A DNA stretch of 25,539 bases from a virus (IMGVR_UViG_3300040801_005248:1-25539); one strand, 5' to 3'; numbered from the stretch's first letter, positions 2,837-25,539 are shown. A program made the numbers and translations. The notes: generated from the letters alone by a model not told the origin.

Positions 2837-3162
2837 TGGCCCGCCACGTAGACGACACATGGGGCGAACACATCGCCCTGTTAGACTGTCCAGAATGCGA
2901 TTATTACGGAGACATCTACTATACAACCAAACGGCCTAGCTACTGCTCAGACGCTTGTAAACAAAAGGCTTACCGCCGCCGCAAAGCGATAAAAAAGACC
3001 CGCCAATACCTCAAACGCTTACCCAACTGGCTACCCGTCCCCCTCAAACAAAGAATAGTTGGCTTTGGTGGCGAGTATGGTTCAGTAGCCGCCCAGGAAC
3101 TAACCGAAATTATAGCCGAAGTCGCCCGCTTGACGGCCAGACCCGACCAACTTAATTCATAA
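2836..3162 (+). CDS. Zinc-ribbon protein (108 aa)
   Basis: CPECDYYG...YCSDACKQKAYRRRK forms a CxxC...CxxxC module with a basic tail. Translationally coupled start (TAATG). Confidence 0.6.
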   Translation: MARHVDDTWGEHIALLDCPECDYYGDIYYTTKRPSYCSDACKQKAYRRRKAIKKTRQYLKRLPNWLPVPLKQRIVGFGGEYGSVAAQELTEIIAEVARLTARPDQLNS

Positions 3163-3170
3163 CCCCCCAC

Positions 3171-3184
3171 CCGTTACGAAAGGA
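3171..3184 (+). promoter_or_regulatory. Leader motif variant (CCGTTACGAAAGGA, copy 4)
   Basis: Shares ACGAAAGGA and an upstream C-rich tract. It lies 6 nt upstream of ATG 3191. Confidence 0.45.
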
Positions 3185-3190
3185 AAAGCA

Positions 3191-3733
3191 ATGTCTACCT
3201 ATCAAGAGCAAGTTTTAGCCCAACTCAAAGCCCAAACCGCTTTACTTGAACACATAGCCCTGCTCCTAGAGAAGCAAACCCAGGAATGGCAATACACCCC
3301 CGAAGGTCTACCAATTTGCCCCAAGCACGGCATAGTGATGAGTAAAAGAGAAAAACAAGGCGACACCTGGCACAGCCACCAGACCAGCACCGGAAATTAC
3401 TGTCGTGGCTACCGCACCGGATGGCCCGGAGACGGTTTCGACGACGACGACGACGACCAAACCCCGCCAGCCGCGCCCACGCCTACGCCCCAGCCCACGC
3501 CGCCCACGCCATCAGCCCCAATGCCGCAAGCCCAGGCCATCCCCCCGGCTCAGGCCGACCAGAAAGCCGAGCCGATTCCCGCTGGCAAAGCCCGCTTGAC
3601 ATTTTATGAAATCGGGCAGAGCCTTATCGGGGCAGGTAAAATGAAATTTGATGAGCTGAACGACTATGTAAGCATCGCCAGCCGGGAAGGTTGGCAGACT
3701 GGCTTGGAGCGATTGCAAGCGGATTTTGCTTGA
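3191..3733 (+). CDS. Hypothetical protein with Cys/His module, D6 acidic run and Pro-rich linker (180 aa)
   Basis: CPKHG..WHSH..YCRGY, then DDDDDD, then PPAAPTPTPQPTPPTP, then a helical C-terminal domain. Confidence 0.65.
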   Translation: MSTYQEQVLAQLKAQTALLEHIALLLEKQTQEWQYTPEGLPICPKHGIVMSKREKQGDTWHSHQTSTGNYCRGYRTGWPGDGFDDDDDDQTPPAAPTPTPQPTPPTPSAPMPQAQAIPPAQADQKAEPIPAGKARLTFYEIGQSLIGAGKMKFDELNDYVSIASREGWQTGLERLQADFA

Positions 3734-3782
3734 TACCCGTACTTGTGGTAAAAAAATTGTCATGCATATTAAAAGCTAAACG

Positions 3783-3816
3783 AAAAGCCCGCCGATACCC
3801 CGGCGGGCTTTTTTTT
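3783..3816. terminator. Bidirectional intrinsic terminator between the convergent early operons
   Basis: AAAAGCCCGCCG-ATACCC-CGGCGGGCTTTT followed by T8 on the plus strand. The A-run on the other side serves the minus strand more weakly. Confidence 0.8.
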
Positions 3817-4003
3817 GCGCTTCATTCTGACTACCCAGGCCCGACCGTGGCCGCCAACAACACGGCCACCGCTTCGCTCAAACCGTCTGCCTGCGCCCAC
3901 CGCTACCCGCCCCCGGCGTCCTCTTGCGCCCGGCCCAGCGCCGCCCCCGGTCTTGGCTCAGGGCCAGCCGTTTCGCTCAGCAAAAGGTCTAAAAGGCGAT
4001 TCG

Positions 4004-4339
4004 CTACCGCCTGACAGTCATCTCTATCCACTTCATGGGATTATCCAGGGACACGGACACATCATCAGCCAAAATGGGACAGCCCATAGCATCCAAGTTT
4101 TCATTCACAAAGCCCTCAGTATACCCAAACTTAACGGACAGATGCGCCGCCAACGCCTGGCGCTGGTCAGTGGTCAACAAATCAATATCCAACTCATAAA
4201 TCAGCTTAACCTCATTGCCTGGCAAGTTAGCCTCGCGTGGAAACGGCGAGCGCAGATGAACCGTATCGGTGCCGAACACCTCTCTCCACGTCTGTGCCCG
4301 CTCACTGTCGCCTGATATTCTCGCTTTGAAATCTCTCAT
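4004..4339 (-). CDS. Hypothetical protein (111 aa)
   Basis: TAATG overlap with the upstream gene. Last gene of the leftward early operon. Confidence 0.6.
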   Translation of the reverse strand: MRDFKARISGDSERAQTWREVFGTDTVHLRSPFPREANLPGNEVKLIYELDIDLLTTDQRQALAAHLSVKFGYTEGFVNENLDAMGCPILADDVSVSLDNPMKWIEMTVRR

Positions 4340-4686
4340 TAGAACAACCGTCCTTGCTTGGCCTCAATCCACTCCAATTCAATAGTATGGTGACTGGACA
4401 CATTACCATTGACAATGTCCACCACGCCCCCCCTTCCCTTAGCATAATCGGGAACAGCAAACGCCTCTCGCACAATCCGCACCTCAGCCGGACTTGGGCC
4501 GACCATGCCTTTCCTGCTGAGGACAAGCCGCCATTTACGCACCGGCCCAGGATAGGCCGACAGGCTCAAGCCCAGGCCCCGGCTTAATTTACGTTGAACG
4601 ACCCGCACCAGGTCATCATTAACCGCCAGCCCCTCCACACAAACGTTAATCATTTCACCCGCTATCTGTTTTAAATTCTCGGCCAT
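4339..4686 (-). CDS. Hypothetical protein (115 aa)
   Basis: GAGGA lies ~9 nt upstream of ATG 4686. An alternative ATG at 4653 cannot be excluded. Confidence 0.6.
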   Translation of the reverse strand: MAENLKQIAGEMINVCVEGLAVNDDLVRVVQRKLSRGLGLSLSAYPGPVRKWRLVLSRKGMVGPSPAEVRIVREAFAVPDYAKGRGGVVDIVNGNVSSHHTIELEWIEAKQGRLF

Positions 4687-4861: not shown

Positions 4862-5136
4862 CTCGGGATCCATTCCTGCCGGTTTGCGTTCCAGCGATAC
4901 ATACGCCGCTCCAGGTAATCATAGAGCTTGTCTGCGTCCATTCTTTCGCCCTTGAGCGTGGCATTGACAACAATCTCAAAGTACATTCCCTCTTTTTCGG
5001 CCTGAATTTTGGCATAGCGCACAATGGCCGCCCGCCGCTTCTGCGTCAAGGCGGGCCGACGCACAACCACGCCCGACGGATTGACCACAATCGTTTTAGG
5101 GCTTCTCGTTGCTAATTTCGTGGTGGATTTACTCAT
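4858..5136 (-). CDS. Hypothetical basic protein (92 aa)
   Basis: ATGA overlap with the exonuclease gene stop (5133-5136). Confidence 0.6.
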   Translation of the reverse strand: MSKSTTKLATRSPKTIVVNPSGVVVRRPALTQKRRAAIVRYAKIQAEKEGMYFEIVVNATLKGERMDADKLYDYLERRMYRWNANRQEWIPR

Positions 5137-5740: not shown

Positions 5741-5843
5741 GTAGTAATGTTCAGTAGTAGGGGGGTGGTCAGTAATCAGATGTCAGTAATCAGATGTCAG
5801 TAATCAGACTACCGACTACTGACTACCGACTACTGACCGCCCC
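5741..5843 (-). repeat. Heptanucleotide tandem-repeat spacer forming a long imperfect hairpin (R1)
   Basis: The left arm (plus strand) is a GTCAGTAATCAGAT 14-mer (two heptamers), about three copies. The right arm is about 2.5 copies of CTACCGACTACTGA. The arms pair over 5762-5843 with 2x2 internal loops every 14 nt. Confidence 0.85.
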
Positions 5844-5911: not shown

Positions 5912-6445
5912 TTACAAGCCTTCGGCCTGAAATTCCATCTCTAAATCGTAGCAGGCCTGGCATAAATCCAGGGTACCCCAATCGGCCTCTCCCCACTGCG
6001 GTTTGAAGCGATGCACCGCCTCCGCCCCACAATCGCACCAGAGCCGGGGCTTTTTGGGTAGATTGTTTTGCCGCCTATACCAGCAGGCAGAACAAACCCG
6101 GTTGGAATGGGTGATTTTGCGGATACCGTTGAACCCAGGCGGCATAGGCCGCCCGCAGTCAAAACACTTGCGATTGTCCCGACTAACGAAACACTTGGGC
6201 CGCTTCCGCCCGTGGTTGCGCCGGTATTGATAGCAGCTCTGGCACAGCCCCCGCCCCCCGTGCTTAACTCGACCGCCAAAAGCGACGTGGCAATCAAGGC
6301 AGAACTCACCCGCGCTGACATTGAGACCGGCCCGAGGTCGCCGCCGGCCAGTGCGCCACCTGTAGGCATAGCACGCAATGCACTCGCTCCGCGAGTTCAT
6401 TGTGATTTGTGTTTCATCCCGCCCACAATTCCGACATCGTTTCAT
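5912..6445 (-). CDS. Four-fold tandem zinc-ribbon repeat protein (177 aa)
   Basis: Four CxxC-(13-19)-CxxC[YW] modules. The first three are followed by a basic Y.R...G..RP-type tail (CIACYAYRWRTGRRRP, CQSCYQYRRNHGRKRP, CSACWYRRQNNLPKKP). Confidence 0.7.
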   Translation of the reverse strand: MKRCRNCGRDETQITMNSRSECIACYAYRWRTGRRRPRAGLNVSAGEFCLDCHVAFGGRVKHGGRGLCQSCYQYRRNHGRKRPKCFVSRDNRKCFDCGRPMPPGFNGIRKITHSNRVCSACWYRRQNNLPKKPRLWCDCGAEAVHRFKPQWGEADWGTLDLCQACYDLEMEFQAEGL

Positions 6446-7255: not shown

Positions 7256-7269
7256 TCCTTTCGTGGTGG
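7256..7269 (-). promoter_or_regulatory. Leader motif CCACCACGAAAGGA (copy 6, minus strand)
   Basis: Exact reverse complement TCCTTTCGTGGTGG, 7 nt upstream of ATG 7248. Confidence 0.6.
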
Positions 7270-7274
7270 AAGTT

Positions 7275-7339
7275 TGATGTCAGTGGTCAGTAGTCAGTAG
7301 TCAGATATCCGATTACTGGCTACTGACTACTGACTGCTA
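7275..7339 (-). repeat. Heptanucleotide tandem-repeat spacer forming a ~26-bp hairpin (R2)
   Basis: 7279-7304 pairs with 7309-7334 (22 WC pairs, 3 G.T, 1 mismatch on the plus strand). The repeat starts at the TAG stop of gene 7337-7600. Confidence 0.85.
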
Positions 7340-8766: not shown

Positions 8767-8780
8767 TCCTTTCGTGGTGG
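8767..8780 (-). promoter_or_regulatory. Leader motif CCACCACGAAAGGA (copy 5, minus strand)
   Basis: Exact reverse complement, 7 nt upstream of ATG 8759. It is preceded in sense orientation by hairpin 8789-8807 (AAGGCGG-ACAGT-CCGCCTT). Confidence 0.6.
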
Positions 8781-9070: not shown

Positions 9071-9126
9071 TTAAAAACCTCAAATCATTTTGATAGATGG
9101 ATTCTGTAATGTACTTCTATTTAAAG

Positions 9127-9231
9127 CATGTGTACCGTACATAAGCGGCTTATGTACCGTACATAAGGAAAATTTTACTTATGACAAGTCGCTTATGTAC
9201 CGTACATAAGCGGGATATGTACCGTACATAT
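9127..9231. repeat. Array of four palindromic iterons/operators (core TGTACCGTACA) plus one degenerate copy
   Basis: Centres lie at 9136, 9158, 9201 and 9223 (spacings 22/43/22 bp). Copies 2 and 3 are the 19-bp palindrome CTTATGTAC-C-GTACATAAG. The AT-rich stretch 9071-9126 adjoins the array. Confidence 0.85.
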
Positions 9232-9240
9232 TGAAATTAG

Positions 9241-10098
9241 TCATTCAGCCAGGTATCCCAGGTCTGAAAATGAGGCCTGTTGCCACTCCTGATGATTGAC
9301 ATTGTGAATCGTCAACCAGCGCCGATGTTCGGCTTGAAGCCGCCGGCTAAAATAACTGACCTCAATTTCGGTGAGCAAAGGCAAACTTTCCAAAACCTGA
9401 AACGTGTAAGCCGTTTTGCGCCCGGCCCCGGTGGTCATCGTGCGCACAATACGCCGCTCCGAAAGCTCCTGGAGCCAGCCCTTAATGCCAGCCCGTTGAT
9501 GGGGCGGGTTGCCCCAGGCCCGCCGGCCCAACAATTTGTACCGCTGTCCTTTGGCTGTAATATCAGCCAAAAGAGCAATTGCGGGCCACTTGCCCGTCAG
9601 GTTTTGGGCCTCATAGCCAAATGATTTCAGGGTGAGCCACAGCCCAAACGCCTCGCCTAGCACCGGTTGCCAGAAACGCACCGCATACACCGAGGGCGCA
9701 ACAAAGGCCCGCAACGGGTCAGTCTGTACCAGTTCCGTTTTGAAGCGCCCAGGGCCAGGGCCATCCGGGTCAGGCTGAGGCCAAACGCTCATTTGAGGTA
9801 TTTTCTGTGCTATCGGGTCTGATGGTGGTGGCCGCCCCACCACGTAATCAATATGGCCTATCGCCGCATCTTGGAGTAAGGCCGCCCGCTTGATGGTGTC
9901 ATCCAGCCGGTTACTTAACCATTGTTGAGCAAACGTATTTTTGACGTAAACTGTGAGAATGCCCGTCTCTTTGTCCAGCACCGCCCCGCTATCCTGAAAC
10001 CACGTATCAAACGTGGATTTGGTCATCTGTAACTTTAATTGGTTTAATGTATCGGCCCAGGCGGGCCAGGCCGGAAGGGGATTGACTGAGGGTGACAA
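9241..10098 (-). CDS. Replication-initiator-like protein with DnaA N-terminal-like domain (285 aa)
   Basis: WADTLNQLKLQMTKSTFDTWFQDSGAVL..LTVYVKNTFAQQWLSNRLDDTIKRA follows the DnaA_N pattern. TTG start with AAAGGAG 6 nt upstream. The iterons lie immediately 3' of the gene. Confidence 0.55.
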   Translation of the reverse strand: MSPSVNPLPAWPAWADTLNQLKLQMTKSTFDTWFQDSGAVLDKETGILTVYVKNTFAQQWLSNRLDDTIKRAALLQDAAIGHIDYVVGRPPPSDPIAQKIPQMSVWPQPDPDGPGPGRFKTELVQTDPLRAFVAPSVYAVRFWQPVLGEAFGLWLTLKSFGYEAQNLTGKWPAIALLADITAKGQRYKLLGRRAWGNPPHQRAGIKGWLQELSERRIVRTMTTGAGRKTAYTFQVLESLPLLTEIEVSYFSRRLQAEHRRWLTIHNVNHQEWQQASFSDLGYLAE

Positions 10099-10144: not shown

Positions 10145-11041
10145 ATGAAACTTACCACCACGATTGAAGAATTTTTGATGGAAGCCAGGCTGAGCTTGGC
10201 CCCGGCCACGGTCAGCAAATACCAATCACATCTGCTTGGTTTTGCCGCCCACGTCGGCGACATCACCCTAAGCGACATCACCGCCCGCCACATCCGCACA
10301 TGGCGCGGAAGTTTGACGGATGCCCTATCACCCTATACAATCCACCAACGACAGCGAACATTACGTCGTTTTTTTAATTGGTGCCTTGACGAAGGCTATG
10401 TCAGCGCATCACCGGTGCGAACGGTGGCTTTCCCACCACTCCCCAAAGACCACCCGCCCCGCGCCATCTCAGCTTATGATTTACACCTAATGTTTCAGGC
10501 CGCTTTCAAGAGTGGACCCCGAGACTACGCCCTGGTTCGCTTCTTGGCCGATACCGGTTGCCGCATAGGCGGCCTGATCACGGCCAGAATAAGCGACTTG
10601 GACACGCAAAACAGAACCATTCTATTAACAGAAAAGGGGAATAAAACCCGCCCGGCCTGGTTTGGGAGTGAAACGGCCAACGCCTTACGCGCCTGGCTGG
10701 TCATTCGGCCCGACCACCCTTCAAACCGATTGTTTCTCAGTCAGCGGCCTGGCAGAGCGCCGGAGCCAATGACTACATCTGGCCCACGCCAGTTATTGAA
10801 ACGCCTGGCAGGGGAGATCGGAATTACCGGGCCGCATAATCCGCACGCCTTCCGCCACGCTTTCGCCCGGCGGATGCTGGCCAACGGCATGGACATCAGC
10901 GACTTAAGTCGCCTCATGGGGCATAGCTCCATCCAGGTCACGGCGAAGCATTACTTATGCTGGACAGCCGCCGAGTTGGGCCAGAAACACGCTCAATTTA
11001 ACTCGCTGGATGAAATAAAAATCACAACGAGGGATTTGTAG
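10145..11041 (+). CDS. int: Tyrosine recombinase / phage integrase (298 aa)
   Basis: Box I is ADTGCRIGGL. Then come HAFRHAFA (HxxR) and GHSSIQVTAKHY (H...Y nucleophile). The N-terminus is a SAM-like core-binding domain. Confidence 0.9.
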   Translation: MKLTTTIEEFLMEARLSLAPATVSKYQSHLLGFAAHVGDITLSDITARHIRTWRGSLTDALSPYTIHQRQRTLRRFFNWCLDEGYVSASPVRTVAFPPLPKDHPPRAISAYDLHLMFQAAFKSGPRDYALVRFLADTGCRIGGLITARISDLDTQNRTILLTEKGNKTRPAWFGSETANALRAWLVIRPDHPSNRLFLSQRPGRAPEPMTTSGPRQLLKRLAGEIGITGPHNPHAFRHAFARRMLANGMDISDLSRLMGHSSIQVTAKHYLCWTAAELGQKHAQFNSLDEIKITTRDL

Positions 11042-11063
11042 GCCCTCGCTGTACTACCACAAA

Positions 11064-11111
11064 AAGGGACTCATAAGCCCTTGGTCGTGTGTTCAAATCA
11101 CACCGTCGCCA
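11064..11111 (+). other. attP core: 3' half of a tRNA with CAU anticodon (Met or Ile2)
   Basis: Anticodon loop CTCATAA (11070-11076), variable region TGGTC, T-arm GTGTG-TTCAAAT-CACAC, 3' acceptor CGTCGCC plus discriminator A. No matching 5' acceptor or D-arm lies upstream. Confidence 0.7.
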
Positions 11112-11233
11112 TTCCCTCAAAAACAGGCGGTTTAAGGGGGGAGGGTGGGGCAAGTTTTGTTGCTTGCCCTCTGGTAGCTGGTTACTACGATTAAAATGTA
11201 TTCAGTTGTTAAGGTGCATTTTCAGGGGACAGC

Positions 11234-11841: not shown

Positions 11842-11976
11842 ATGAACAACATCGACGCCATTATCACCTGGTGTATCTTCGGCCTAATGGTCTACATCTT
11901 CAGCCGCATCAATCAGCGCATCGAAAAAGCCGAGCCAGAGCCAGGGCCAGAAAACGAAAAAGAGCCACCGATATAA
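11842..11976 (+). CDS. Small single-TM protein (44 aa)
   Basis: MNNIDAIITWCIFGLMVYIFSRINQR followed by an acidic/Pro tail. ATG 11842 is in frame in ORF 11701-11976. The stop lies in the terminator loop. Confidence 0.5.
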   Translation: MNNIDAIITWCIFGLMVYIFSRINQRIEKAEPEPGPENEKEPPI

Positions 11977-11993
11977 AAATCGGTGGCTCTTTT
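11961..11993 (+). terminator. Terminator of the moron cassette
   Basis: AGAGCCACCGAT-ATAAAA-ATCGGTGGCTCT (12-bp perfect stem) followed by TTT. Confidence 0.65.
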
Positions 11994-12030
11994 CGTACCA
12001 TGACCGTCAATAAACCCAAAAATGAAAGGT

Positions 12031-13825: not shown

Positions 13826-14275
13826 CTACTCTTCAAAAATAAGCTTGGCCCGCACGTTGACCCCCGCCGGAGCCGTGCAGACTATCCCCAGCCTGTCCCC
13901 GCCGCCAATAATCGGCTCCTGTCCCAGCGGGTAGCGTATCTCATAGCCCTGTTGAGGATGAACTTCAATCACATCCAGGGCATCGGACGTTGTCGGTTCA
14001 GCCGTGGCCGTATGCTGGGCCGATGTTTGGAGCGTTTCGGCCAGACTGTCATCCAACTTAACCGGGGTCAGGCTGGACATTGTGCCAGCCGTGCTTTGCC
14101 GGCTGACAGTCACCTGCACCGGTTCAGCCGTGACCGATGTCCCGTCAAAAAACACGCCCCAGCCCAAGACCTTCACCCGATGATTGGCCGGAGCCACAAT
14201 TTGCAACACGGTTTTGGCCGTAGCCGCCGTAAGAGCGACCTCGCTTGTTTGCGCCACACCAATAAATGCACTCAT
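13826..14275 (-). CDS. Small beta-rich virion-associated protein (149 aa)
   Basis: GAGG lies 5 nt upstream of ATG 14275 (GTG 14281 is also possible). It sits within the tail module. Confidence 0.6.
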   Translation of the reverse strand: MSAFIGVAQTSEVALTAATAKTVLQIVAPANHRVKVLGWGVFFDGTSVTAEPVQVTVSRQSTAGTMSSLTPVKLDDSLAETLQTSAQHTATAEPTTSDALDVIEVHPQQGYEIRYPLGQEPIIGGGDRLGIVCTAPAGVNVRAKLIFEE

Positions 14276-14290
14276 AGTCACCTCAATTGA

Positions 14291-14340
14291 GAATTAAGAA
14301 TTAAGAATTAAGAATTTTTGACCCCTGACCCCTGAAACTC
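14291..14340 (-). repeat. In-register heptamer repeats, no hairpin (R3)
   Basis: Plus strand: (GAATTAA)x3, GAATTTTT, (GACCCCT)x2, GAAACTC. Sense strand: (AGGGGTC)x2 then (TTCTTAA)x3. Confidence 0.85.
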
Positions 14341-14346
14341 GTTTTG

Positions 14347-14535
14347 ACCTCCCCCCCCACCCCCTCTACCACCACAGACCCCCCACCCCCCTTGCAGGAG
14401 TTGGAAAGCTGTAAACAAACCAGAAACTTCAAGCTAAACCGCAACATCCAGCGAAAGAACAAGGACACACAGCCAAGACACAGCCAAGAGACAGCCAAGA
14501 GACAGCCAAGAGACAAGGCAAAGACAGGCCAGACA
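14347..14535 (-). repeat. Composite intergenic element, copy A
   Basis: Block 1 (14347-14399) matches 21338-21390 at 51/53. Block 2 (14417-14485) matches 21409-21477 at 68/69. Tail of 11-mer repeats (AGAGACAGCCA)x3. Confidence 0.9.
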
Positions 14536-15996
14536 CTACACCCGCAGGTGACGCACCGGGCGAGGCGAGGCCACCGACCGCCCCGGCCACGACTTACCCG
14601 CCACGTAATCAATCGCAATCTTCGGCCTGTAACCAGCCGTGCCATTGTTCGAGCTATGCCATATCCGAATATTGGCCGCGCCAACGCCAATGATGAAACC
14701 GTGGTTTGTCCCACCAGCCCCAAACGCCGCCGCCAGCCTGTCCGCATCCAGGTTCGACCCTGTTAACAAATCAGCTTGAGCCTCAGTGTCCGCACTGGAT
14801 ACCGGATAAGTAATCGAAGGCGGGCTGGCATCCGCTTCATAATCCGTCCCACTGGTACCGCCCCCGCCAGAGCCGGGCCAAGCCGTGCTGGTTTTGTAGT
14901 CGTTCCAGGTCGCCGTTTCTTCCCAATCCGACACATTAGCGTGAAGCATATAAATATCAAACGCCTGTGTTCCCGCCGTGCTGTTCTTCGACCACAAACT
15001 CAGCGTTGCCGCCGTACAGGTCGCCCCCGCCGGGATAGACGTCAAATCAAATTTGACCAGGCCATGCCGAGACCCCAACCCCATTTGAATTTCAGAACTG
15101 GTGTCATAGGAATTATTTGGCAGGGATGAAAATATAAACGTGTCCTGAGCCGAAGCCTCCGCCGGTTGGTCGCTAAACGTAGGATCAAACACAATCGGCC
15201 CCGGCGGCAAAGCCTCAAGGGCCAGCACAGGCGCCCCCACAAACAAAAAGAGCCGCCCATTCTGTCTATAAAACTTGCGCCGTAGTCGCAACTGAGCCGC
15301 GCCAGCATAAGCATAGTCTACCGGCATAAAGCCCAGCAAATCACCATTGGCCGAACGCAGGTTCAACCGTTCTTCTGTCTCAAAGCCGCCCGTTACATCC
15401 TGAATCGCCCCGTCAACATCCCACCGACCAACGCCGCCAGCATCCAATTCAAACAGGAAGCCAAACATCGTTTCAGCCGCCGGCGTCACCGGCCCAGGGA
15501 GCGAAGCCCGCGCCGATTCGGATAGCCAGACTTCTTCCTTCAGCCGCAACCCCGACAATTGCCACCGGAGCGAAATACCGGGCATTACGCCCAGCCAGTA
15601 AGCGGTTAGCCCCACCGCTTGACCATCCAGCCTATCCACCCCTTGCGTCAAATCGGCCCGGTCATAAACCGCCGACGCCACCCGCTGAAAGCCAGACGGA
15701 TGCAAATACCCCGCCCCCTCCAGACGGCTCATTATCCAGCCTTGCCCCTGACGGCCACCAAAGCCCACCCAGCCATCAGCCGCCTTGCCCCCAGGCTGGC
15801 CCAGGGCAAAATGCCAGCCGTTGCTTGTTACGCGCCACCCGTCCAGGTTGTCATTATTCACCCGCTGAGGCGACAGGTTGATGTCATGCACCCAATCCGA
15901 ACCATAATGAAGCGGTGTCCCCAGCCGAGCCGTAAAGCGTTCGCCCTGACCCAACCGCAAATGTTTCCCGGTCTGCGTTCTGGCAAACTCACTCAT
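14536..15996 (-). CDS. Tailspike/fibre-like protein with C-terminal DNRLRE (CBM96-like) domain (486 aa)
   Basis: AQDTFIFSSLPNNSYDTSSEIQMGLGSRHGLVKFDLTSIPAGATCTAATLSLWSK...VSDWEETATWNDY follows the DNRLRE-domain pattern. ATG 15996 gives an ATGA overlap with the upstream stop. Confidence 0.55.
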   Translation of the reverse strand: MSEFARTQTGKHLRLGQGERFTARLGTPLHYGSDWVHDINLSPQRVNNDNLDGWRVTSNGWHFALGQPGGKAADGWVGFGGRQGQGWIMSRLEGAGYLHPSGFQRVASAVYDRADLTQGVDRLDGQAVGLTAYWLGVMPGISLRWQLSGLRLKEEVWLSESARASLPGPVTPAAETMFGFLFELDAGGVGRWDVDGAIQDVTGGFETEERLNLRSANGDLLGFMPVDYAYAGAAQLRLRRKFYRQNGRLFLFVGAPVLALEALPPGPIVFDPTFSDQPAEASAQDTFIFSSLPNNSYDTSSEIQMGLGSRHGLVKFDLTSIPAGATCTAATLSLWSKNSTAGTQAFDIYMLHANVSDWEETATWNDYKTSTAWPGSGGGGTSGTDYEADASPPSITYPVSSADTEAQADLLTGSNLDADRLAAAFGAGGTNHGFIIGVGAANIRIWHSSNNGTAGYRPKIAIDYVAGKSWPGRSVASPRPVRHLRV

Positions 15997-16652
15997 ACCC
16001 AGCCCCGGCCTCGTCTGGCCCATTTGTCCTTTGGCGTTTCAATCCGGCTTTGCCCCTGCGCCGCCTGATTGCCCGCTTCATCCATCAGCCAGGCTTTAAA
16101 TTCGGCCACCCGCTCATTGCCCCAGGCCAAAATACGCCCCGTCACCTGTCGGCCCAACGTCACCTGCTCTTCCAAATCCAAAGCGCGAGTTTGGGCCGCA
16201 AACCCCGCCGCCCCCAACTCAAGCATACTCAGGCCCACCGAATTGAAACTTGTAGCGACCGCCCCGTCCAAGTCAGCCAGAATGTGGAGCGTCCCATAGA
16301 ACACCCGTACCACATCCCCCGAACTCGGCTCATAGCCATCAGGGAAATAAATCACCTGACTATCACGCCACCACTCAAACCGCCGCCAGTTTGGGGGATA
16401 CTCAGGTGCAGAAGCCGTATAGGGCGACCACACCCGTTGAACCACCAACACATCAGACAGGGAGCTAATATCTACCTCACGGCCATTCGCCGCCAGCGTC
16501 ACCGTCCCCATCGTCTGACGAGGCAGTACTTGGCTGTACTCATGCGCCGCCTGTCTAATGCCATTGTCCAGCGCATCAGCCGACCAGATGTCATTGGCCA
16601 CATCAGCCAGGCGTATCTCTACCCTATCCCGGAGCGTTGCCAAATTTGTCAT
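15993..16652 (-). CDS. Virion protein, possible head-tail adaptor (219 aa)
   Basis: AGGAGG lies 7 nt upstream of the ATG. Position is between head and tail genes. No diagnostic motif. Confidence 0.6.
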   Translation of the reverse strand: MTNLATLRDRVEIRLADVANDIWSADALDNGIRQAAHEYSQVLPRQTMGTVTLAANGREVDISSLSDVLVVQRVWSPYTASAPEYPPNWRRFEWWRDSQVIYFPDGYEPSSGDVVRVFYGTLHILADLDGAVATSFNSVGLSMLELGAAGFAAQTRALDLEEQVTLGRQVTGRILAWGNERVAEFKAWLMDEAGNQAAQGQSRIETPKDKWARRGRGWV

Positions 16653-16665
16653 AAAAAAACCTCCT

Positions 16666-16750
16666 GGAAATTGGGAATCAGGAATTAGAAAGGCCCACTC
16701 CCTAACCCCTAACCCCTAGCCCCTAATTCCTAATTCCTACCCCCTACTTC
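16666..16750 (-). repeat. Heptamer repeat spacer, seven sense-strand TAGs at 7-nt spacing (R4)
   Basis: Plus strand 16702-16750: CTAACCC x2, CTAGCCC, CTAATTC x2, CTACCCC, CTACTTC. The last CTA is the real stop of gene 16744-17016. The left arm GGAAATT GGGAATC AGGAATT is partly complementary. Confidence 0.85.
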
Positions 16751-17490: not shown

Positions 17491-17502
17491 ACTGCCTCCG
17501 AA

Positions 17503-17572
17503 TAGAAATTAGAAATTAGACGTCAGATGTCAGCAGTCAGATTACCGACTACCGACTACTGACTACTGCTTA
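17503..17572 (-). repeat. Ten in-register heptamers including a hairpin (R6)
   Basis: Sense strand: TAAGCAG TAGTCAG TAGTCGG TAGTCGG TAATCTG ACTGCTG ACATCTG ACGTCTA ATTTCTA ATTTCTA. The first TAA is the capsid gene stop. 17522-17540 pairs with 17545-17563. Confidence 0.85.
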
Positions 17573-19591: not shown

Positions 19592-20882
19592 TACCTCCTA
19601 AAATTTCCTGTATTTTTTCTTCGCCCAAAACCTCACCGGCGAATTTGAAACTTAATCGAATGGCCGTCTCGTCATCAATCCAGCCATTTTCTTTCATTGT
19701 CGCAAACGCCGCCACAATAGTACTGGCGGCATTAGCCAGGCTCTCATTATCTTGCCGACTAATATCCGGCACAGCCACATGCACCGGATAACTGTCCCGT
19801 CTTGGAGCCAGGCCCAGCGCCGCCTTGCACTCATACGCCCGGCGAACGACGTCGGCCACAATGGAACGTATCTCATTCTGCCTCATTCTGTAATGCCGCC
19901 GCGTGGGATCGCCCATCTCCGCCGCCGTGCTACGATTGGCCGAACTGCCCTCACTCAGAAAATGCAAAGGAACATTGGCCCCAGCCGCCAGGGCCAGGCG
20001 CAACACCCGCCCGTCTGGTTCAGCATCCCAGCCCTGCACATTCATAGCCTGATAGCGCAATGTCTCCCCCTTGCCGTGGATGAACAACCCCCCGTCAATC
20101 GGAGGATTAGCCTCATACTGGGCCTGTTTGGTGGCTAAATCGCGGTCATTCTCAATCTCAATATCAACCGCCGCCATTCTTGCCCTAAGCTCATTCAAAT
20201 CAACCCGCCCATTCAACCAGGTCGTATACCGTTTGGCCCAGGGCAAAACCGGCCCCAAATCGCCTTGCCCCCTTGTCCGCCCCACCACCCGATTGATTTT
20301 GTAATGCAATAAAACCGGTTCGCCCGGCTCTGCTGTGTGCACCGAAGCCCACAGCCGCCCCCCAATTTCGTCCTCGTCTCCCTCAACGTCCAACACCTGC
20401 GCCACCTGACGATAGCCAAGATGCTTTTCGTAATCCTGCGGGTCGGTCAGCACCCGTTCAATCTGCGTGGCCGGCAATTCCCGAATGTAACACATCCCCG
20501 ACACCGCGTCTGGAAATAAAGCCACAAAAATCTCACCACTGCGGGTCAACTCGTCACACCAGGCCGGAAGCCGCTGAACCAGCCTGTTTTCGTCATGGTC
20601 GGCAAACTCACGCACAAACTGCCCAAACTCCCCTTCTTCAGCGGAAACGGTCATTGTATCGCCGATAACATAAGCCGTAGTCAGGCGCACAATCTGCCGG
20701 ATGAGGAAATTCCTGTCCCAGGCTTCCAGGGCGTCCGTCAAATCCTCATAGTGATCAGCCCAGGCCCTATCGCTGGGGCCATCGCCCGCATAGCTCACCG
20801 GTTGCCAACCAGGGTGGTTATCATCTACCAACACATTCAGGGCCAGCATCAGCCGCCCCCACCACTGCTTAAGCACACTCAT
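19560..20882 (-). CDS. Portal protein (440 aa)
   Basis: Size, an acidic C-terminus and the position between TerL and the capsid gene. ATGA coupling to the upstream gene. Confidence 0.7.
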   Translation of the reverse strand: MSVLKQWWGRLMLALNVLVDDNHPGWQPVSYAGDGPSDRAWADHYEDLTDALEAWDRNFLIRQIVRLTTAYVIGDTMTVSAEEGEFGQFVREFADHDENRLVQRLPAWCDELTRSGEIFVALFPDAVSGMCYIRELPATQIERVLTDPQDYEKHLGYRQVAQVLDVEGDEDEIGGRLWASVHTAEPGEPVLLHYKINRVVGRTRGQGDLGPVLPWAKRYTTWLNGRVDLNELRARMAAVDIEIENDRDLATKQAQYEANPPIDGGLFIHGKGETLRYQAMNVQGWDAEPDGRVLRLALAAGANVPLHFLSEGSSANRSTAAEMGDPTRRHYRMRQNEIRSIVADVVRRAYECKAALGLAPRRDSYPVHVAVPDISRQDNESLANAASTIVAAFATMKENGWIDDETAIRLSFKFAGEVLGEEKIQEILGGSDSGSNETPE

Positions 20883-21109
20883 AAGCCGCCCCCCCTTGTT
20901 TCTCCCGGTGGCGGGACAATCTCATCCTTTGGCCCTTGCCATTCATAATGATGGAACAGGCGAAAACAATTACACCCCCGATGCAGGGGAGGCTGAGGGC
21001 CTTTGCCTTTCCGGAAAATCCGGCCCACGTGGGGCATACAAGTCTTACAGGCCAGCGACCCATCGCTGTTTACCATTGTGTGATACTGTTCGTACTCAAT
21101 CCAGGGCAT
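20879..21109 (-). CDS. Mini MuF/SPP1-gp7-like C-terminal-motif protein (76 aa)
   Basis: DGSLACKTCMPHVGRIF....PPLHRGCNCFRLF matches the D..C..C..G...PP.H..C.C signature of head-morphogenesis proteins. Confidence 0.5.
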   Translation of the reverse strand: MPWIEYEQYHTMVNSDGSLACKTCMPHVGRIFRKGKGPQPPLHRGCNCFRLFHHYEWQGPKDEIVPPPGETRGGGL

Positions 21110-21115
21110 AACGTC

Positions 21116-21304
21116 CTACCAATCCGACACCCACTCATATTCAATAAAAACCCGATAGCAGTTACAGTTATCGTGATACGGAGGCCAATCAATCGGATCA
21201 TCCTCATAATAAGTATTGCCCACGTACTCTTCGCAAAGCTCACAAACGTGCGACCCATCCTGATTCATCTCAGAGCGTATCTCATAAACTTTTACCCACG
21301 GCAT
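21116..21304 (-). CDS. Mini MuF/SPP1-gp7-like C-terminal-motif protein, paralogue (62 aa)
   Basis: MPWVKVYE..DGSHVCELCEEYVGNTYY...WPPYHDNCNCYRVFIEYEW aligns with the neighbouring 76-aa protein (MPWIEYEQ..DGSLACKTC..PPLHRGCNCFRLFHHYEW). Confidence 0.5.
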   Translation of the reverse strand: MPWVKVYEIRSEMNQDGSHVCELCEEYVGNTYYEDDPIDWPPYHDNCNCYRVFIEYEWVSDW

Positions 21305-21337
21305 AAGCAACCTACTAACTACCGACTACTGATTTTA

Positions 21338-21498
21338 ACCTCCCCCCCCACCCCCTCTACCACCACAGAACCCCCGCCCCCCTTGCAGGAAACCAGAAAC
21401 CAGAACTAAAACCAGAAACTTCAAGCTAAACCGCAACATCCAGCGAAGGAACAAGGACACACAGCCAAGACACAGCCGACAGAGCCGACACAGCCAGG
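21338..21498 (-). repeat. Composite intergenic element, copy B
   Basis: Same two conserved blocks as copy A, in the same orientation, directly after the TerL stop (TAG 21499-21501). Confidence 0.9.
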
Positions 21499-23055
21499 CT
21501 ACTGCCAGCTATCCCGCCGACGCTGAGGCCGCACAACCACGCTGGCCCCAGAGCCGAAGAACAACTTGGCATCAAGGCGAAGTTGCTCCACATAGCCGAC
21601 CAGAGCCGCCGACAACAGCCGGTCATCGTGCACATCAACCACCGAACCATCAGACAAGACGTGCTTCTGCCCCGCTCGCACCGACCAGCGTAAACCGCGC
21701 TCAATCGGGTAGCCTTCGGCCAGCTCATAGCCGCAGTACTCGGCCTGTAGGAGAAACCACCACACATCAGACAATTCAGCCGCCACCGCCGAAGCCTCGG
21801 CGAAATACCGGAAACGGCCAGTCTCAATCAAGCTCAGGAAGGCATTGCCCAGCCACGCCTTGCCCTGCTGCTTACTAAAGTCGAATGGCCAGACCTTGCC
21901 CTGAAATCTTTCGCTCAGCGCGTCAGACAATCCTTGCCCCACGCCCGAAGCATCCACCACCACCGCCGCCGGTCGCCACCGATCCAGGAGCGACACCAAG
22001 CGAGTGAACAACGCTGGCCGCCCCGGATGATCCTCAAAATGCCGACTGCCCTGGTCAGTGAACACGTCCACCGCTTCATACCGTGGCCCCAAATCATCTC
22101 CCTCAGTCACCCGGACAATGGTCAGCACCGTATAATCACGCCCAGGGTTGACCAACTCCGCAAACTGCGACGTCGCCGCCTCGTCCTGACCGCCGACATC
22201 CAGGAGCGCGACATACGCTTCCCCGGCCACCGGGCCAGCCAGCCGAGCATGCGCCCCGGCCATCAGCCCACGCCGCCGCGCCGGGAACAAGCCCGCCGCC
22301 GTGTCCACCGGCTCATTGAATAATTCAGTCTTAACCGACGGATGTTCCCGCCCTTTTAGGCGCACCTGGTTGGCCACAAACTCGCCATAATGCGGATTTT
22401 CCAGGGCCACATCATCCGGGCCGACAATGAACACCCGTTTAATACCATCTTCTAACGTCAGGCGTTCCAGGCGAGACTTAACCGTCCACAGATAATCGCT
22501 GGTTGTGCGCACCGTCCCTACAAATAGAGCCGTGGCATTGGCCGAAGCCCGCATTGGCGTGAATCGCCGTTCAATCGTTGGTTCGTGCTGGTCTTGAACC
22601 TCGTTGATAATCAAAAGCAAATTGGCCGTTGCCCCCTCGCTTTTCGCCTGCGGGTTACCAGAGAAAAACGCGACCTGCGCTTTGCCCAAGCCCCGGCGAA
22701 TCGGTTTCCGGCCCGACCATTGCCGCCCCCCGGAAAAAATATTATCAAGCCGGTAATCCAACCGAGTAGTACCCGTCGAAATTTGGCTACTGCTGGGATA
22801 GACGTGGACAACACCCGCTTCTACCCGCTGAAACAAGGCCAACAGATAGGCGCATAACTGCCCAATCGCTTCATCTTTCCCACTTTGCCGAGGAAACACC
22901 CACAAAAACTCAAGCCCCCGCTTATGCAGACAGGAATCAACAACAGCATCCACCGGCCCCAGCTGATAATCGCGTAAGGGATAGCCAATCACCACCGCCG
23001 AGTACAGCCGGGCGGATTTTAAGACCCGCTTAATTTTTGAAAGAGCGTCAACCAT
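21499..23055 (-). CDS. terL: Terminase large subunit (518 aa)
   Basis: Walker A-like FPRQSGKDEA, Walker B-like LLLIINEVQD, and a C-terminal nuclease-length domain. Position is upstream of portal. Confidence 0.85.
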   Translation of the reverse strand: MVDALSKIKRVLKSARLYSAVVIGYPLRDYQLGPVDAVVDSCLHKRGLEFLWVFPRQSGKDEAIGQLCAYLLALFQRVEAGVVHVYPSSSQISTGTTRLDYRLDNIFSGGRQWSGRKPIRRGLGKAQVAFFSGNPQAKSEGATANLLLIINEVQDQHEPTIERRFTPMRASANATALFVGTVRTTSDYLWTVKSRLERLTLEDGIKRVFIVGPDDVALENPHYGEFVANQVRLKGREHPSVKTELFNEPVDTAAGLFPARRRGLMAGAHARLAGPVAGEAYVALLDVGGQDEAATSQFAELVNPGRDYTVLTIVRVTEGDDLGPRYEAVDVFTDQGSRHFEDHPGRPALFTRLVSLLDRWRPAAVVVDASGVGQGLSDALSERFQGKVWPFDFSKQQGKAWLGNAFLSLIETGRFRYFAEASAVAAELSDVWWFLLQAEYCGYELAEGYPIERGLRWSVRAGQKHVLSDGSVVDVHDDRLLSAALVGYVEQLRLDAKLFFGSGASVVVRPQRRRDSWQ

Positions 23056-24034: not shown

Positions 24035-24075
24035 AAAAAAAAAGGGGGCGACATCGTAAAACCGACGCCGCCCCC
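24035..24075 (-). terminator. Strong intrinsic terminator immediately upstream of the late operon
   Basis: Minus-strand RNA: GGGGGCGGCGUCG-GUUUUA-CGAUGUCGCCCCC (13 bp including 2 G.U) followed by U9. On the plus strand the two G.U positions are A.C mismatches. Confidence 0.8.
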
Positions 24076-24384
24076 ACTGTAGAGGATAAACACACAGTAA
24101 AATTATCGCACAAATGTTCGCTAAGTCAACCTCTTGTGCAACTTGACCTATAAAACCAGCTCTTCCGGAGGCTTCAGTGGCCAGATTCATTGTGCAGGTT
24201 GCCATAGATTGAATCCGGTATTTTTTTATACAGTGAATCGTCCCCCAAGTCGCCGCCTTCTCCAAACCATAAAAGCGGGATGCCCTTGCTGGCTACGTGG
24301 CGGGCGGTCAGAGGGGGGCTGTTTTTTTCCGAGGCTTCACCTTTGGCCGAGGGTGGATGCCTTTGGCGCGGGCTTGTGCCCGGC

Positions 24385-25309: not shown

Positions 25310-25539
25310 TGCTCATCGGTGTTACTGGTTCTCGCCGTTTCCAGCCTCGTCCCGTCGTTGGCGCTGTCCTGCGTGCGCTCCAGCCCTCGTCCGTGTTCGT
25401 TGGCTGCGCCCGTGGCGCAGATAAAGCCGTTCGCCAAGCCTTTCCCTCGGCTCGCGTGTTTCGCGCCGCTGGCCCCCTGCCCCATCAGCTTGTAGCGCGC
25501 TCCGTATCACTGGTTCATGCCGTGGCCGCTGGCTCTGGC
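25309..25539 (+). CDS. DprA/SLOG-like Rossmann-fold protein, 5' part (continues at 118-393)
   Basis: ATG 25309 overlaps the upstream TAA (TAATG). MLIGVTGSRRF...VGCARGADKAVRQAF. It is in frame with ORF 34-393 across the repeat. Confidence 0.5.
   Translation, partial: MLIGVTGSRRFQPRPVVGAVLRALQPSSVFVGCARGADKAVRQAFPSARVFRAAGPLPHQLVARSVSLVHAVAAGSG
25423..25539. repeat. Terminal direct repeat, identical to 1-117
   Basis: Same comparison. This is either an assembler overlap of a circular molecule or a physical terminal redundancy. Confidence 0.97.

Follow-up and report, generated by a model that had tools for sequence, protein, structure and literature searches.

The question raised by positions 14347-14535 of the viral sequence IMGVR_UViG_3300040801_005248:1-25539 is why a non-coding element should occur there and, in almost the same letters, a second time at positions 21338-21498 of the same late operon, and what, if anything, it does at these two sites. 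In the following, the window is the whole stretch of 25,539 nt that was analysed, copies A and B are the two occurrences of the element, and the sense strand is the minus strand, on which the late operon is read. We tentatively favour the view that the element is a recently duplicated spacer, born by slippage and co-transcribed with the late operon, whose role, if it has one, would lie in the RNA: an uncoupler of gene blocks, a G-quadruplex (G4) that acts as roadblock or 5' boundary, and a low C content that avoids Rho. Any effect of the cassette on expression is speculative, and a spacer that has no function beyond occupying space is nearly as likely. Both copies begin exactly at the stop codon (TAG) of the upstream gene and end before the next ribosome-binding site on the sense strand, and each consists, in sense order, of the stop codon, a tail of tandem repeats (GGCTGTGTC-type), block 2, an insert, block 1, arrays of heptamers, and the ribosome-binding site with its ATG. 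The parts and the adjoining genes are as follows.

14536-16023, minus strand: gene upstream of copy A, a 495-aa protein with a DNRLRE domain (a carbohydrate-binding domain)
14276-14535, minus strand: copy A, whole untranslated spacer (260 nt), from the stop codon of the 495-aa gene (14536-14538) to the ATG (14275) of the 149-aa gene
14469-14527, minus strand: copy A, 5' tail, 5.4 copies of 11-mers, sense GGCTGTCTCTT / GGCTGTGTCTT
14417-14485, minus strand: copy A, block 2 (69 nt)
14400-14416, minus strand: copy A, insert (17 nt)
14347-14399, minus strand: copy A, block 1 (53 nt), with a G-tract core at 14351-14391 and then GGAGGT
14285-14335, minus strand: copy A, 3' flank, sense (GGGGTCA)x2.4 and (TTCTTAA)x4.6, then ribosome-binding site and ATG
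13826-14275, minus strand: gene downstream of copy A, a 149-aa protein (p151), ~81% identical in L071 and L003
21499-23055, minus strand: terL (large terminase subunit), the gene upstream of copy B; the TerL relatives carry PF17289
21305-21498, minus strand: copy B, whole untranslated spacer (194 nt), from the terL stop codon (21499-21501) to the ATG (21304) of the 62-aa MuF-like gene
21459-21495, minus strand: copy B, 5' tail, 3.9 copies of 9-mers, sense GGCTGTGTC / GGCTCTGTC, directly past the stop codon
21409-21477, minus strand: copy B, block 2 (69 nt), 68/69 against copy A
21391-21408, minus strand: copy B, insert (18 nt), within a period-7 array, sense TTTCTGG
21338-21390, minus strand: copy B, block 1 (53 nt), with a G-tract core at 21342-21382 and then GGAGGT
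21312-21332, minus strand: copy B, 3' flank, heptamers, sense CAGTAGT/CGGTAGT, a family also found in three other spacers

Alignment and ungapped comparison of the copies gave 51/53 identical positions for block 1 and 68/69 for block 2, and the insert between the blocks shares only 5-7 of 17 positions. In copy B, block 2 is expanded at its end by the period-7 array (21389-21419, 4.7 copies). Copies A and B point in the same direction, at a distance of 6991-6992 nt. Thus the copies, block sizes, inserts and orientation described in the first-pass annotation, made from the sequence alone, are reproduced exactly, as is its remark that the 5' tails differ, these being 11-nt (A) and 9-nt (B) tandem arrays. 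Past block 1 a weaker homology extends to 14337/21328; in the sense orientation the homology ends read TGTCTTGGCTG... and ...GGAGGTYAAAA. Sub-patterns of 19-24 nt from the blocks, searched with up to three mismatches, have two occurrences in the window and no more, where shuffles predict 0.00-0.02, which excludes chance for the two-copy repeat. A third partial copy at 6243-6263 was considered and was not recovered at up to three mismatches.

How did the two copies come to be so alike? The block mismatches amount to three substitutions in 122 nt (G/T, T/C and T/C on the sense strand), and outside the blocks the differences between A and B are confined to the tandem-repeat tracts and the short replaced insert. 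From this we infer a recent duplication, or gene conversion, between the two junctions. Near-identity over two non-coding sites had previously been taken to imply either selection or recent gene conversion; the second part fits, and the first is not needed, since three block substitutions together with slippage-prone tails and a replaced insert are explained by a recent copy or conversion without selection, including the pattern of conserved blocks. Indeed, near-identity of two non-coding copies within one genome is by itself not evidence of selection. A contig of 1028 nt from a sister sample (L234), 99.9% identical, begins inside block 1 of copy B, from which it follows that the phage recurs in other samples and that the repeat or the G-run breaks assemblies. 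Its positions 1-20, set against 21336-21355 of the window, read G14 in place of G5-T-G8, which is either a real G-tract polymorphism or an error at the contig end.

Does the element bring its own transcription signals? The window contains a single long minus-strand late operon of five translationally coupled gene blocks, split by four spacers that are built of short tandem repeats and of which copies A and B are the longest. The operon runs from a small-terminase-like gene through terL, two small paralogs resembling the MuF C-terminus, portal and a protease-capsid fusion to two small genes, an SU10-type adaptor, the 495-aa DNRLRE-domain protein, the 149-aa protein and a tail protein. Thus copy B precedes the two small MuF-like paralogs and portal, and copy A precedes the 149-aa protein and the tail protein, so that both copies head a translationally coupled gene block, as the first-pass annotation had said in placing each at the start of a new sub-module. 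Its gene context likewise holds for copy B, past terL and before the MuF-like and portal genes; for the gene upstream of copy A its label 'tailspike-like' goes further than the DNRLRE domain, which makes it plausible. The signals of the operon are found at its two ends:

24044-24129, minus strand: promoter-like site of the late operon (TTGACT-16-GATAAT with TG) together with a hairpin and T9, ahead of the first late gene
11957-11994, minus strand: hairpin resembling an intrinsic terminator, closing the late operon

No sigma-70-like promoter was found on the minus strand within either copy, and no -35/-10 pair at a spacing of 16-18 nt is common to both; inspection gave only TAGCTT, without a -35 at usable spacing. 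The search for an intrinsic terminator returned only a weak 6-bp hairpin in the 9-mers of copy B (21489-21475), which is not present in copy A. These results bear on the earlier proposal of an internal late promoter or enhancer, according to which the element would act at the DNA level as a promoter, or as the binding site of an activator, for the head block and for the p151/tail block. It would suit this proposal that each copy precedes a structural-gene block and that the repeat period of 9-11 nt is close to one helical turn. However, the same scanner finds good sigma-70-like sites elsewhere in the phage, the operon is already served by one good promoter-like site upstream and by a terminator at its far end, the tandem repeats have a period of 11 nt in A but of 9 nt in B, and 122 nt of near-identity far exceed what a promoter needs. 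We therefore regard a promoter or enhancer as very unlikely.

Is the element found anywhere else? Exact-pattern scans of viral contigs returned neither block 1 nor block 2. Among 185,579 species genomes, scanned for exact 19-20-mers, there was nothing for block 2, and for block 1 there were eight scattered matches of 19-23 nt in unrelated taxa, against about four expected by chance; the 16 matches in a metagenome collection, which does not include the window's own contig or its sister samples, were all of 25 nt or less, unrelated and at chance level. Searches with blastn and nhmmer of 46 loci of TerL relatives, and then of L071-L075, gave heptamer matches only for both copies, and distant blastn gave no match in GenBank phages and matched only (TTCTTAA)n in plasmids. 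A pattern scan of viral contigs for the G4 architecture was uninformative, as it returned mostly poly-G contig ends. Thus, as far as the data reach, the blocks are absent from all relatives, the very outcome that the first-pass annotation had named as speaking against constraint.

These searches also bear on an origin by mobility, i.e. a non-autonomous element of the host or the phage community, similar to a miniature inverted-repeat transposable element (MITE) or to BOX, that was inserted twice in intergenic sites. Two insertions at junctions that are ancestrally compact (see below) would be accounted for, as would the modular build of blocks, variable middle and repeat tails, and the DNA-level scans did not cover the native metagenomes (the window contig and the sister-sample contigs). 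Against this, no terminal inverted repeats involve the element ends, the flanks differ without any short direct duplication at the homology boundaries, hairpin potential is lacking, only chance-level matches were found in the species genomes and metagenomes, and both copies share one orientation, each starting precisely at a stop codon. This origin appears quite unlikely. A MITE or other non-autonomous transposon was set aside for want of terminal inverted repeats and target duplications, its copy number being two in the window with chance-level matches in scans that excluded native samples; a repeat of the BOX/REP/ERIC type was rejected as there is no stable stem-loop or palindrome. A recombination site, suggested earlier, is not borne out either: TerL and the head module share their closest relative, and p151 after copy A is merely slow-evolving. 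A mosaic junction at copy A could be ruled out in the same way, p151 being ~81% identical in two different relatives.

The relatives offer a view of the two junctions before the element. The gap upstream of the p151 homologs measures 1-23 nt in nearly all of 28 contigs, and in L002-L007, L073 and L075 terL is directly adjoined or overlapped by the gene that follows; as both junctions are compact in most relatives, the spacers of the window are derived. An exception is the closest relative (L001/L071), with a 1.9-kb non-coding stretch past terL and a 225-nt spacer before the p151 homolog. Long spacers at these two junctions may be a trait of a small clade, with the element sequence private to the window. 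We tried the hairpin modules between terL and portal of L071 (CCTGC..GGGGG, GTTTGCTTG) as kin of the element and found the similarity not significant (Smith-Waterman score of 23; shuffle mean 21.5-22.1, with 65-67 of 200 shuffles scoring at least as high).

Two observations on this relative stand apart. In L001 the ~1.9 kb between terL and portal (2930-4660, corresponding to L071 2945-4867) hold no credible genes, and consist of hairpin modules that recur in three families (91 nt x3, 61 nt x3 and 157 nt x2) and four units of a hairpin plus a T-run; the stretch has no Rfam match and could be an array of small RNA genes. In L071 three stop codons (at 2943, 10513 and 12108) are overlapped by the motif TAGTGGGG(A/G)C: they end terL, the adaptor gene and the gene that precedes the p151 homolog. 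The motif also has near-matches at 9292 and 12164; at up to one mismatch it has eight matches against 1.6 expected, a number that none of 200 shuffles reach.

What might the RNA of the element do? On the sense strand both copies read G6-N-G5/6-(14-15 nt)-G5-T-G8, i.e. at least four G-tracts, within a block 1 that reads CCTGCAAG6-N-G5/6, 14-15 nt, G5-T-G8-AGGT. The G4Hunter score is about -1.5 over 68-70 nt on the plus strand, and the copies are the longest such stretches in the genome. The genome has only five motifs with G-tracts of at least four and loops not exceeding 15 nt, each of them on the minus strand; the copies are two of these, and the strongest G4 motifs of the genome are exactly copies A and B. 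When quadruplexes are allowed, ViennaRNA predicts a five-layer RNA G4 in the minimum free energy (MFE) structure of both copies. For the full spacers the predicted MFE is -94.9 (quadruplexes allowed) vs -77.1 kcal/mol in copy A (z = -3.6) and -84.0 (quadruplexes allowed) vs -60.3 kcal/mol in copy B (z = -4.0), a gain of 18-24 kcal/mol from quadruplexes; the sense-strand G4-proneness noted at first pass thus holds at the level of prediction. The predicted core, G5-G5-(15 nt)-G5-G5, and its closing helix of CUCCU with GGAGG are common to A and B, the helix being longer in B, and the two substitutions in block 1 keep at least five Gs in every tract. Ordinary RNA folding, by comparison, is no better than in dinucleotide shuffles (MFE z of -0.40 and -0.09), with no significant stem-loops, and searches of Rfam came back empty, both for the whole window (E<=1) and, with permissive filters, for 14200-14600 (E<=10). 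By inspection, the GGAGGT of both copies has no ATG, GTG or TTG within 20 nt downstream.

The strand asymmetry of the element, also described at first pass, is clear: on the plus strand T and G make up 6.9% and 18% of copy A and 6.2% and 16% of copy B, compared with 20% and 23% in the window, and no other 150-nt windows of that strand are as poor in G+T as A and B. On the sense strand the spacer of copy A contains 13% A, 17% C, 32% G and 37% T, and that of copy B 10% A, 15% C, 39% G and 36% T. The plus-strand C content of the copies is 37-42%, and C/G peaks at 3.8 (A) and 5.7 (B), in the 98th-99th percentiles, with a genome-wide median of 1.42; late-operon spacers account for four of the five most C-over-G-biased 78-nt windows of the plus strand. 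GC skew is negative on the plus strand along the entire genome, whatever the direction of the genes. Together with the strand bias of G4 motifs, this suggests that the asymmetry is linked to replication or mutation rather than to transcription.

Does this asymmetry serve as a barrier on the opposite strand? In this explanation, which goes back to the first-pass annotation, the RNA of the plus strand would be a C-rich, G-poor and unstructured Rho-loading site that stops antisense transcripts from running into the late operon. The composition is real: the antisense RNA of the copies, with 37-42% C and 16-18% G, has the ~80 nt of C-rich, G-poor, unstructured sequence of a Rho-utilisation (rut)-like site, and a weak plus-strand promoter-like match (9/12) lies in the heptamers beside copy A (14287-14315). 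However, C exceeds G over the whole plus strand, so that antisense RNA is rut-like almost everywhere and the feature is largely a property of the genome, no antisense promoter adjoins copy B, and the conserved blocks are left unexplained. We consider such a barrier the least probable of the explanations weighed here.

In the explanation we favour, a ~150-nt lineage-specific non-coding cassette would have been copied from one late-operon junction to another, or homogenised by gene conversion, its material being that of the other late-operon spacers, i.e. short, often G-rich tandem repeats with periods of 7, 9 or 11 nt that set in at the stop codon. Having no promoter or terminator of its own, it would be transcribed within the single late polycistronic mRNA, as a long untranslated stretch, rich in G and U and poor in A and C, that separates two coupled gene blocks. 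Block 1, as the 3' module, most likely folds, according to the model, into a stable RNA G4 with a CUCCU/GGAGG clamp, 37-70 nt upstream of the next start codon. This structure might uncouple the translation of the two flanking blocks and, as a roadblock to exoribonucleases, might give the downstream block (the head genes after B; p151 and tail after A) its own mRNA stability or translation level, and the low C content might keep Rho off the naked spacer RNA. We count it in favour of such a role that the closest relative, L071, has long spacers at the same junctions with a shared motif of its own.

Several points weigh against it. The G4 is a model prediction, and the pairing of GGAGG with CUCCU in the predicted fold argues against binding of 30S subunits to it in the manner of a stabilising Shine-Dalgarno sequence (STAB-SD). 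The G-tracts are not conserved, as the relatives lack the element and have no G-rich spacer at the two junctions, and with the sequence carried by no relative evolution provides no evidence of constraint. G4 motifs are biased 8:1 to 18:1 to the minus strand genome-wide, also under plus-strand genes, so that the G-richness of the spacers is partly a background property, and depletion of C in the spacers is mixed among relatives (none in L071; C-rich in L010). Direct repeats on either side of essential head genes, 7 kb apart, put these genes at risk of deletion, which is easier to reconcile with a young element than with an old regulator. Finally, neutral duplication plus slippage accounts for all observations.

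That last account, to which we give almost the same weight, sees the element as neutral or selfish filler: a spacer grown by slippage and copied once by illegitimate or microhomology-mediated recombination, harmless and without function. It agrees with the absence of the element from all relatives and collections and with the compact junctions of most relatives, with copies that differ only by three block substitutions, repeat-tract changes and the replaced insert, with ordinary folds that do not surpass shuffles and have no Rfam counterpart, and with a strand bias of G-runs that extends over the genome. It agrees less well with the ~450 nt spent on two spacers despite the pressure of packaging and economy on phage genomes, with the deletion cost of a 150-nt direct repeat around essential genes, with the location of the genome's strongest G4 motifs at precisely these two sites, and with the closest relative, where long spacers are likewise kept at both junctions and share a motif of their own.

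Are the two copies a special case among the spacers of this phage? The other two late-operon spacers are:

16653-16743, minus strand: spacer that starts at a stop codon, sense (GGAATTA)/(GGGGTTA) heptamers, with a canonical G4 motif
17491-17569, minus strand: spacer that follows the protease-capsid gene, with hairpin-forming heptamer arrays, (GTAGTCR)n opposite (CTGAYNN)n

The first of these has the highest C/G ratio on the plus strand. Period-7 tandem repeats fill spacers of minus-strand operons, mostly of the late operon and often from the stop codon, in the window (5768-5837, 7279-7335, 14285-14335, 16700-16746, 17503-17566 and 21389-21419) and in several TerL relatives (L073 15328-15357 and 19689-19712; L075 13412-13506, 16104-16137 and 16505-16534; L008 3015-3103; L010 10150-10180). 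The heptamer unit is genome-specific, yet it is reused across several spacers of one genome, and many units hold TAG, TAA or TGA, so that three copies place a stop in every frame. No period-7 repeats were found in the 9 kb of host DNA beside prophage L073.

A broader reading, which we put forward as unlikely, is that this family of temperate Chloroflexota phages punctuates its late mRNA with genome-specific repeat cassettes, the two-copy element being an RNA G4 clamp that bounds an independently stabilised or translated segment. Its parts would be the stop-anchored period-7 arrays, often with stops in three frames, the hairpin arrays past the capsid gene and the G4 cassettes before structural blocks. 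If true, G4s and tandem repeats would here fill the role of the RNase III sites of T7. For the two-copy element as it stands, the data show the growth of spacers by tandem-repeat slippage and their copying between junctions in this phage lineage; if the cassette acts in the mRNA, it would be a compact natural RNA G4 of a phage or bacterium that divides a long operon into differently expressed units, useful for late-gene stoichiometry in uncultured phages and as a part for synthetic biology. The repeat-built, stop-codon-anchored spacers across this phage family are the more intriguing lead.

To which known systems can the element be compared? By sequence it belongs to no known family; in genomic terms it is a private intergenic repeat in a phage genome, with a likeness to the modular intergenic repeats of bacteria and to the boundary repeats of phages. 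The former include BOX, REP/BIME, ERIC and Correia/MITEs. Like these, the element is short, non-coding, modular, intergenic, co-transcribed and present at more than one site; unlike these, it has two known copies and strong strand asymmetry, and lacks inverted repeats, hairpins and target duplications. Repeated motifs of phages, such as the stoperators and start-associated sequences of mycobacteriophages, the RNase III sites of T7 and the boundary sequences of lambdoid phages, are 13-40 nt long, occur in many copies and are conserved within clusters. The element shares with them repetition, fixed orientation and a position at gene-block boundaries, but is 150 nt long, has two copies and is private to one genome; it is also distinct in sequence from the window's own start-associated motif, CCACCACGAAAGGA. 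The STRR heptanucleotide repeats of cyanobacteria fill intergenic DNA. In Geobacter, tandem-heptamer elements form period-7 intergenic repeats (PMC2700814). Similar period-7 arrays flank both copies and fill other late-operon spacers, whereas here they stand in late operons of a Chloroflexota-associated phage family, with unit sequences that are genome-specific.

In function, its closest counterparts would be RNA G4 regulators of bacteria and stabilisers of mRNA leaders (STAB-SD or purine-tract type). A regulatory role of bacterial RNA G4s has published support, e.g. for hemL, bswR and PE/PPE transcripts of M. tuberculosis (PMC6974567, PMC10801317). As in those cis-elements, at least four G-tracts lie on the sense strand near a translation start, are predicted to be very stable and would be expected to modulate translation or decay; unlike them, the tracts of at least five Gs with a central loop of 14-15 nt are found in an intercistronic phage spacer and are duplicated, the element is not conserved in relatives, and its fold is a predicted one. 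A non-initiating Shine-Dalgarno-like sequence can protect mRNA from 5'-3' decay, as the STAB-SD of cry3A does (Agaisse and Lereclus 1996, reviewed in PMC4113751), and in furA-katG a purine-rich stabiliser is reported to follow intercistronic processing (PMC2358910). With both, the element has in common a perfect GGAGG(T) far upstream of a start codon, in the untranslated leader of an operon's downstream cistron; unlike STAB-SD, its GGAGG is predicted to pair with CUCCU, and it may be incidental to the G-rich tract.

A number of further identities were tried and rejected. Small coding open reading frames (ORFs) are excluded, as the 17/18-nt insert puts the copies in different frames, a ribosome-binding site is lacking and the products are absent from the protein collection. 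A remnant of a decayed LexA-like helix-turn-helix (HTH) gene, which relatives carry past terL, gave no tblastn signal, and an antiterminator RNA of the HK022 put type is at odds with the lack of significant stem-loops and of an adjoining promoter. For a template/variable repeat pair of a diversity-generating retroelement, the mismatches would have to be adenine-specific, which they are not, and no reverse-transcriptase domain was found in the ORFs scanned. Resemblances to ops/RfaH-like sequences (GGTGGTAGAGGG vs GGCGGTAGnnTG, 9/12), to Chi-like GTGGTGG and to mitochondrial termination at a conserved sequence block II (CSBII)-like G5TG8 were set aside. The ORFs scanned also contain no NusG paralog and no single-subunit RNA polymerase.

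As for the genes beside the copies, p151 is unusually conserved: it is ~81% identical where the TerL of the relatives is 61-64% and the capsid 41-60% identical. Its homologs lie at 12341-12784 in L071 and 20594-21025 in L003 and are present in 38 viral contigs (L076-L113), and it has no match in Pfam, PHROG, NCBIfam or PDB. A homolog of the 495-aa DNRLRE protein is absent from the relatives fetched. After copy B, the genes at 20879-21109 and 21116-21304 on the minus strand encode a small CxxC protein resembling the MuF C-terminus, in two paralogous versions arranged in tandem. In relatives the MuF-like gene is single and mostly follows a LexA-type HTH gene, which is missing from the window. 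In the stretch 24044-24129 the late promoter-like site is followed, within 30 nt, by a strong 13-bp G+C hairpin and T9. A hairpin placed after a promoter in this way recalls PR'-tR' of lambda, an arrangement that needs an antiterminator.

The phage itself is an uncultured and temperate one, from a JGI metagenome. Bases 1-117 and 25423-25539 are identical by repeat comparison within the window, which therefore represents a circularly closed or terminally redundant genome of ~25.4 kb. The closest TerL relatives are just 60-64% identical, no close cultured phage was found, named homologs of TerL and integrase come from Chloroflexota/Anaerolineae bins, and the related prophage L073 adjoins host genes whose best named homologs are in Chloroflexota. 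Two genes outside the late operon are of note here:

9241-10098: DnaA-N/Rep-like protein, adjoining iterons at 9126-9236
10145-11041: tyrosine integrase

The iterons, about five partly palindromic units of 22 nt (GCTTATGTACCGTACATAAGCG), are likely the replication origin. Just past the integrase, inspection of ~11062-11112 on the plus strand reveals what reads as the 3' half of a tRNA-Met(CAT), with the anticodon loop CTCATAA, the T-arm and the acceptor end; it is probably the attP core, implying integration into a host tRNA-Met gene. An ARAGORN scan found no complete tRNA or tmRNA in the window. The start-associated motif mentioned above, CCACCACGAAAGGA, stands directly upstream of early-gene start codons on both strands and always in the sense orientation (978-991, 1297-1310 and 1853-1866 on the plus strand; 5113-5126, 7256-7269 and 8767-8780 on the minus strand), its six matches comparing with 0.14 expected in the window, and resembles the start-associated sequences of cluster K mycobacteriophages.

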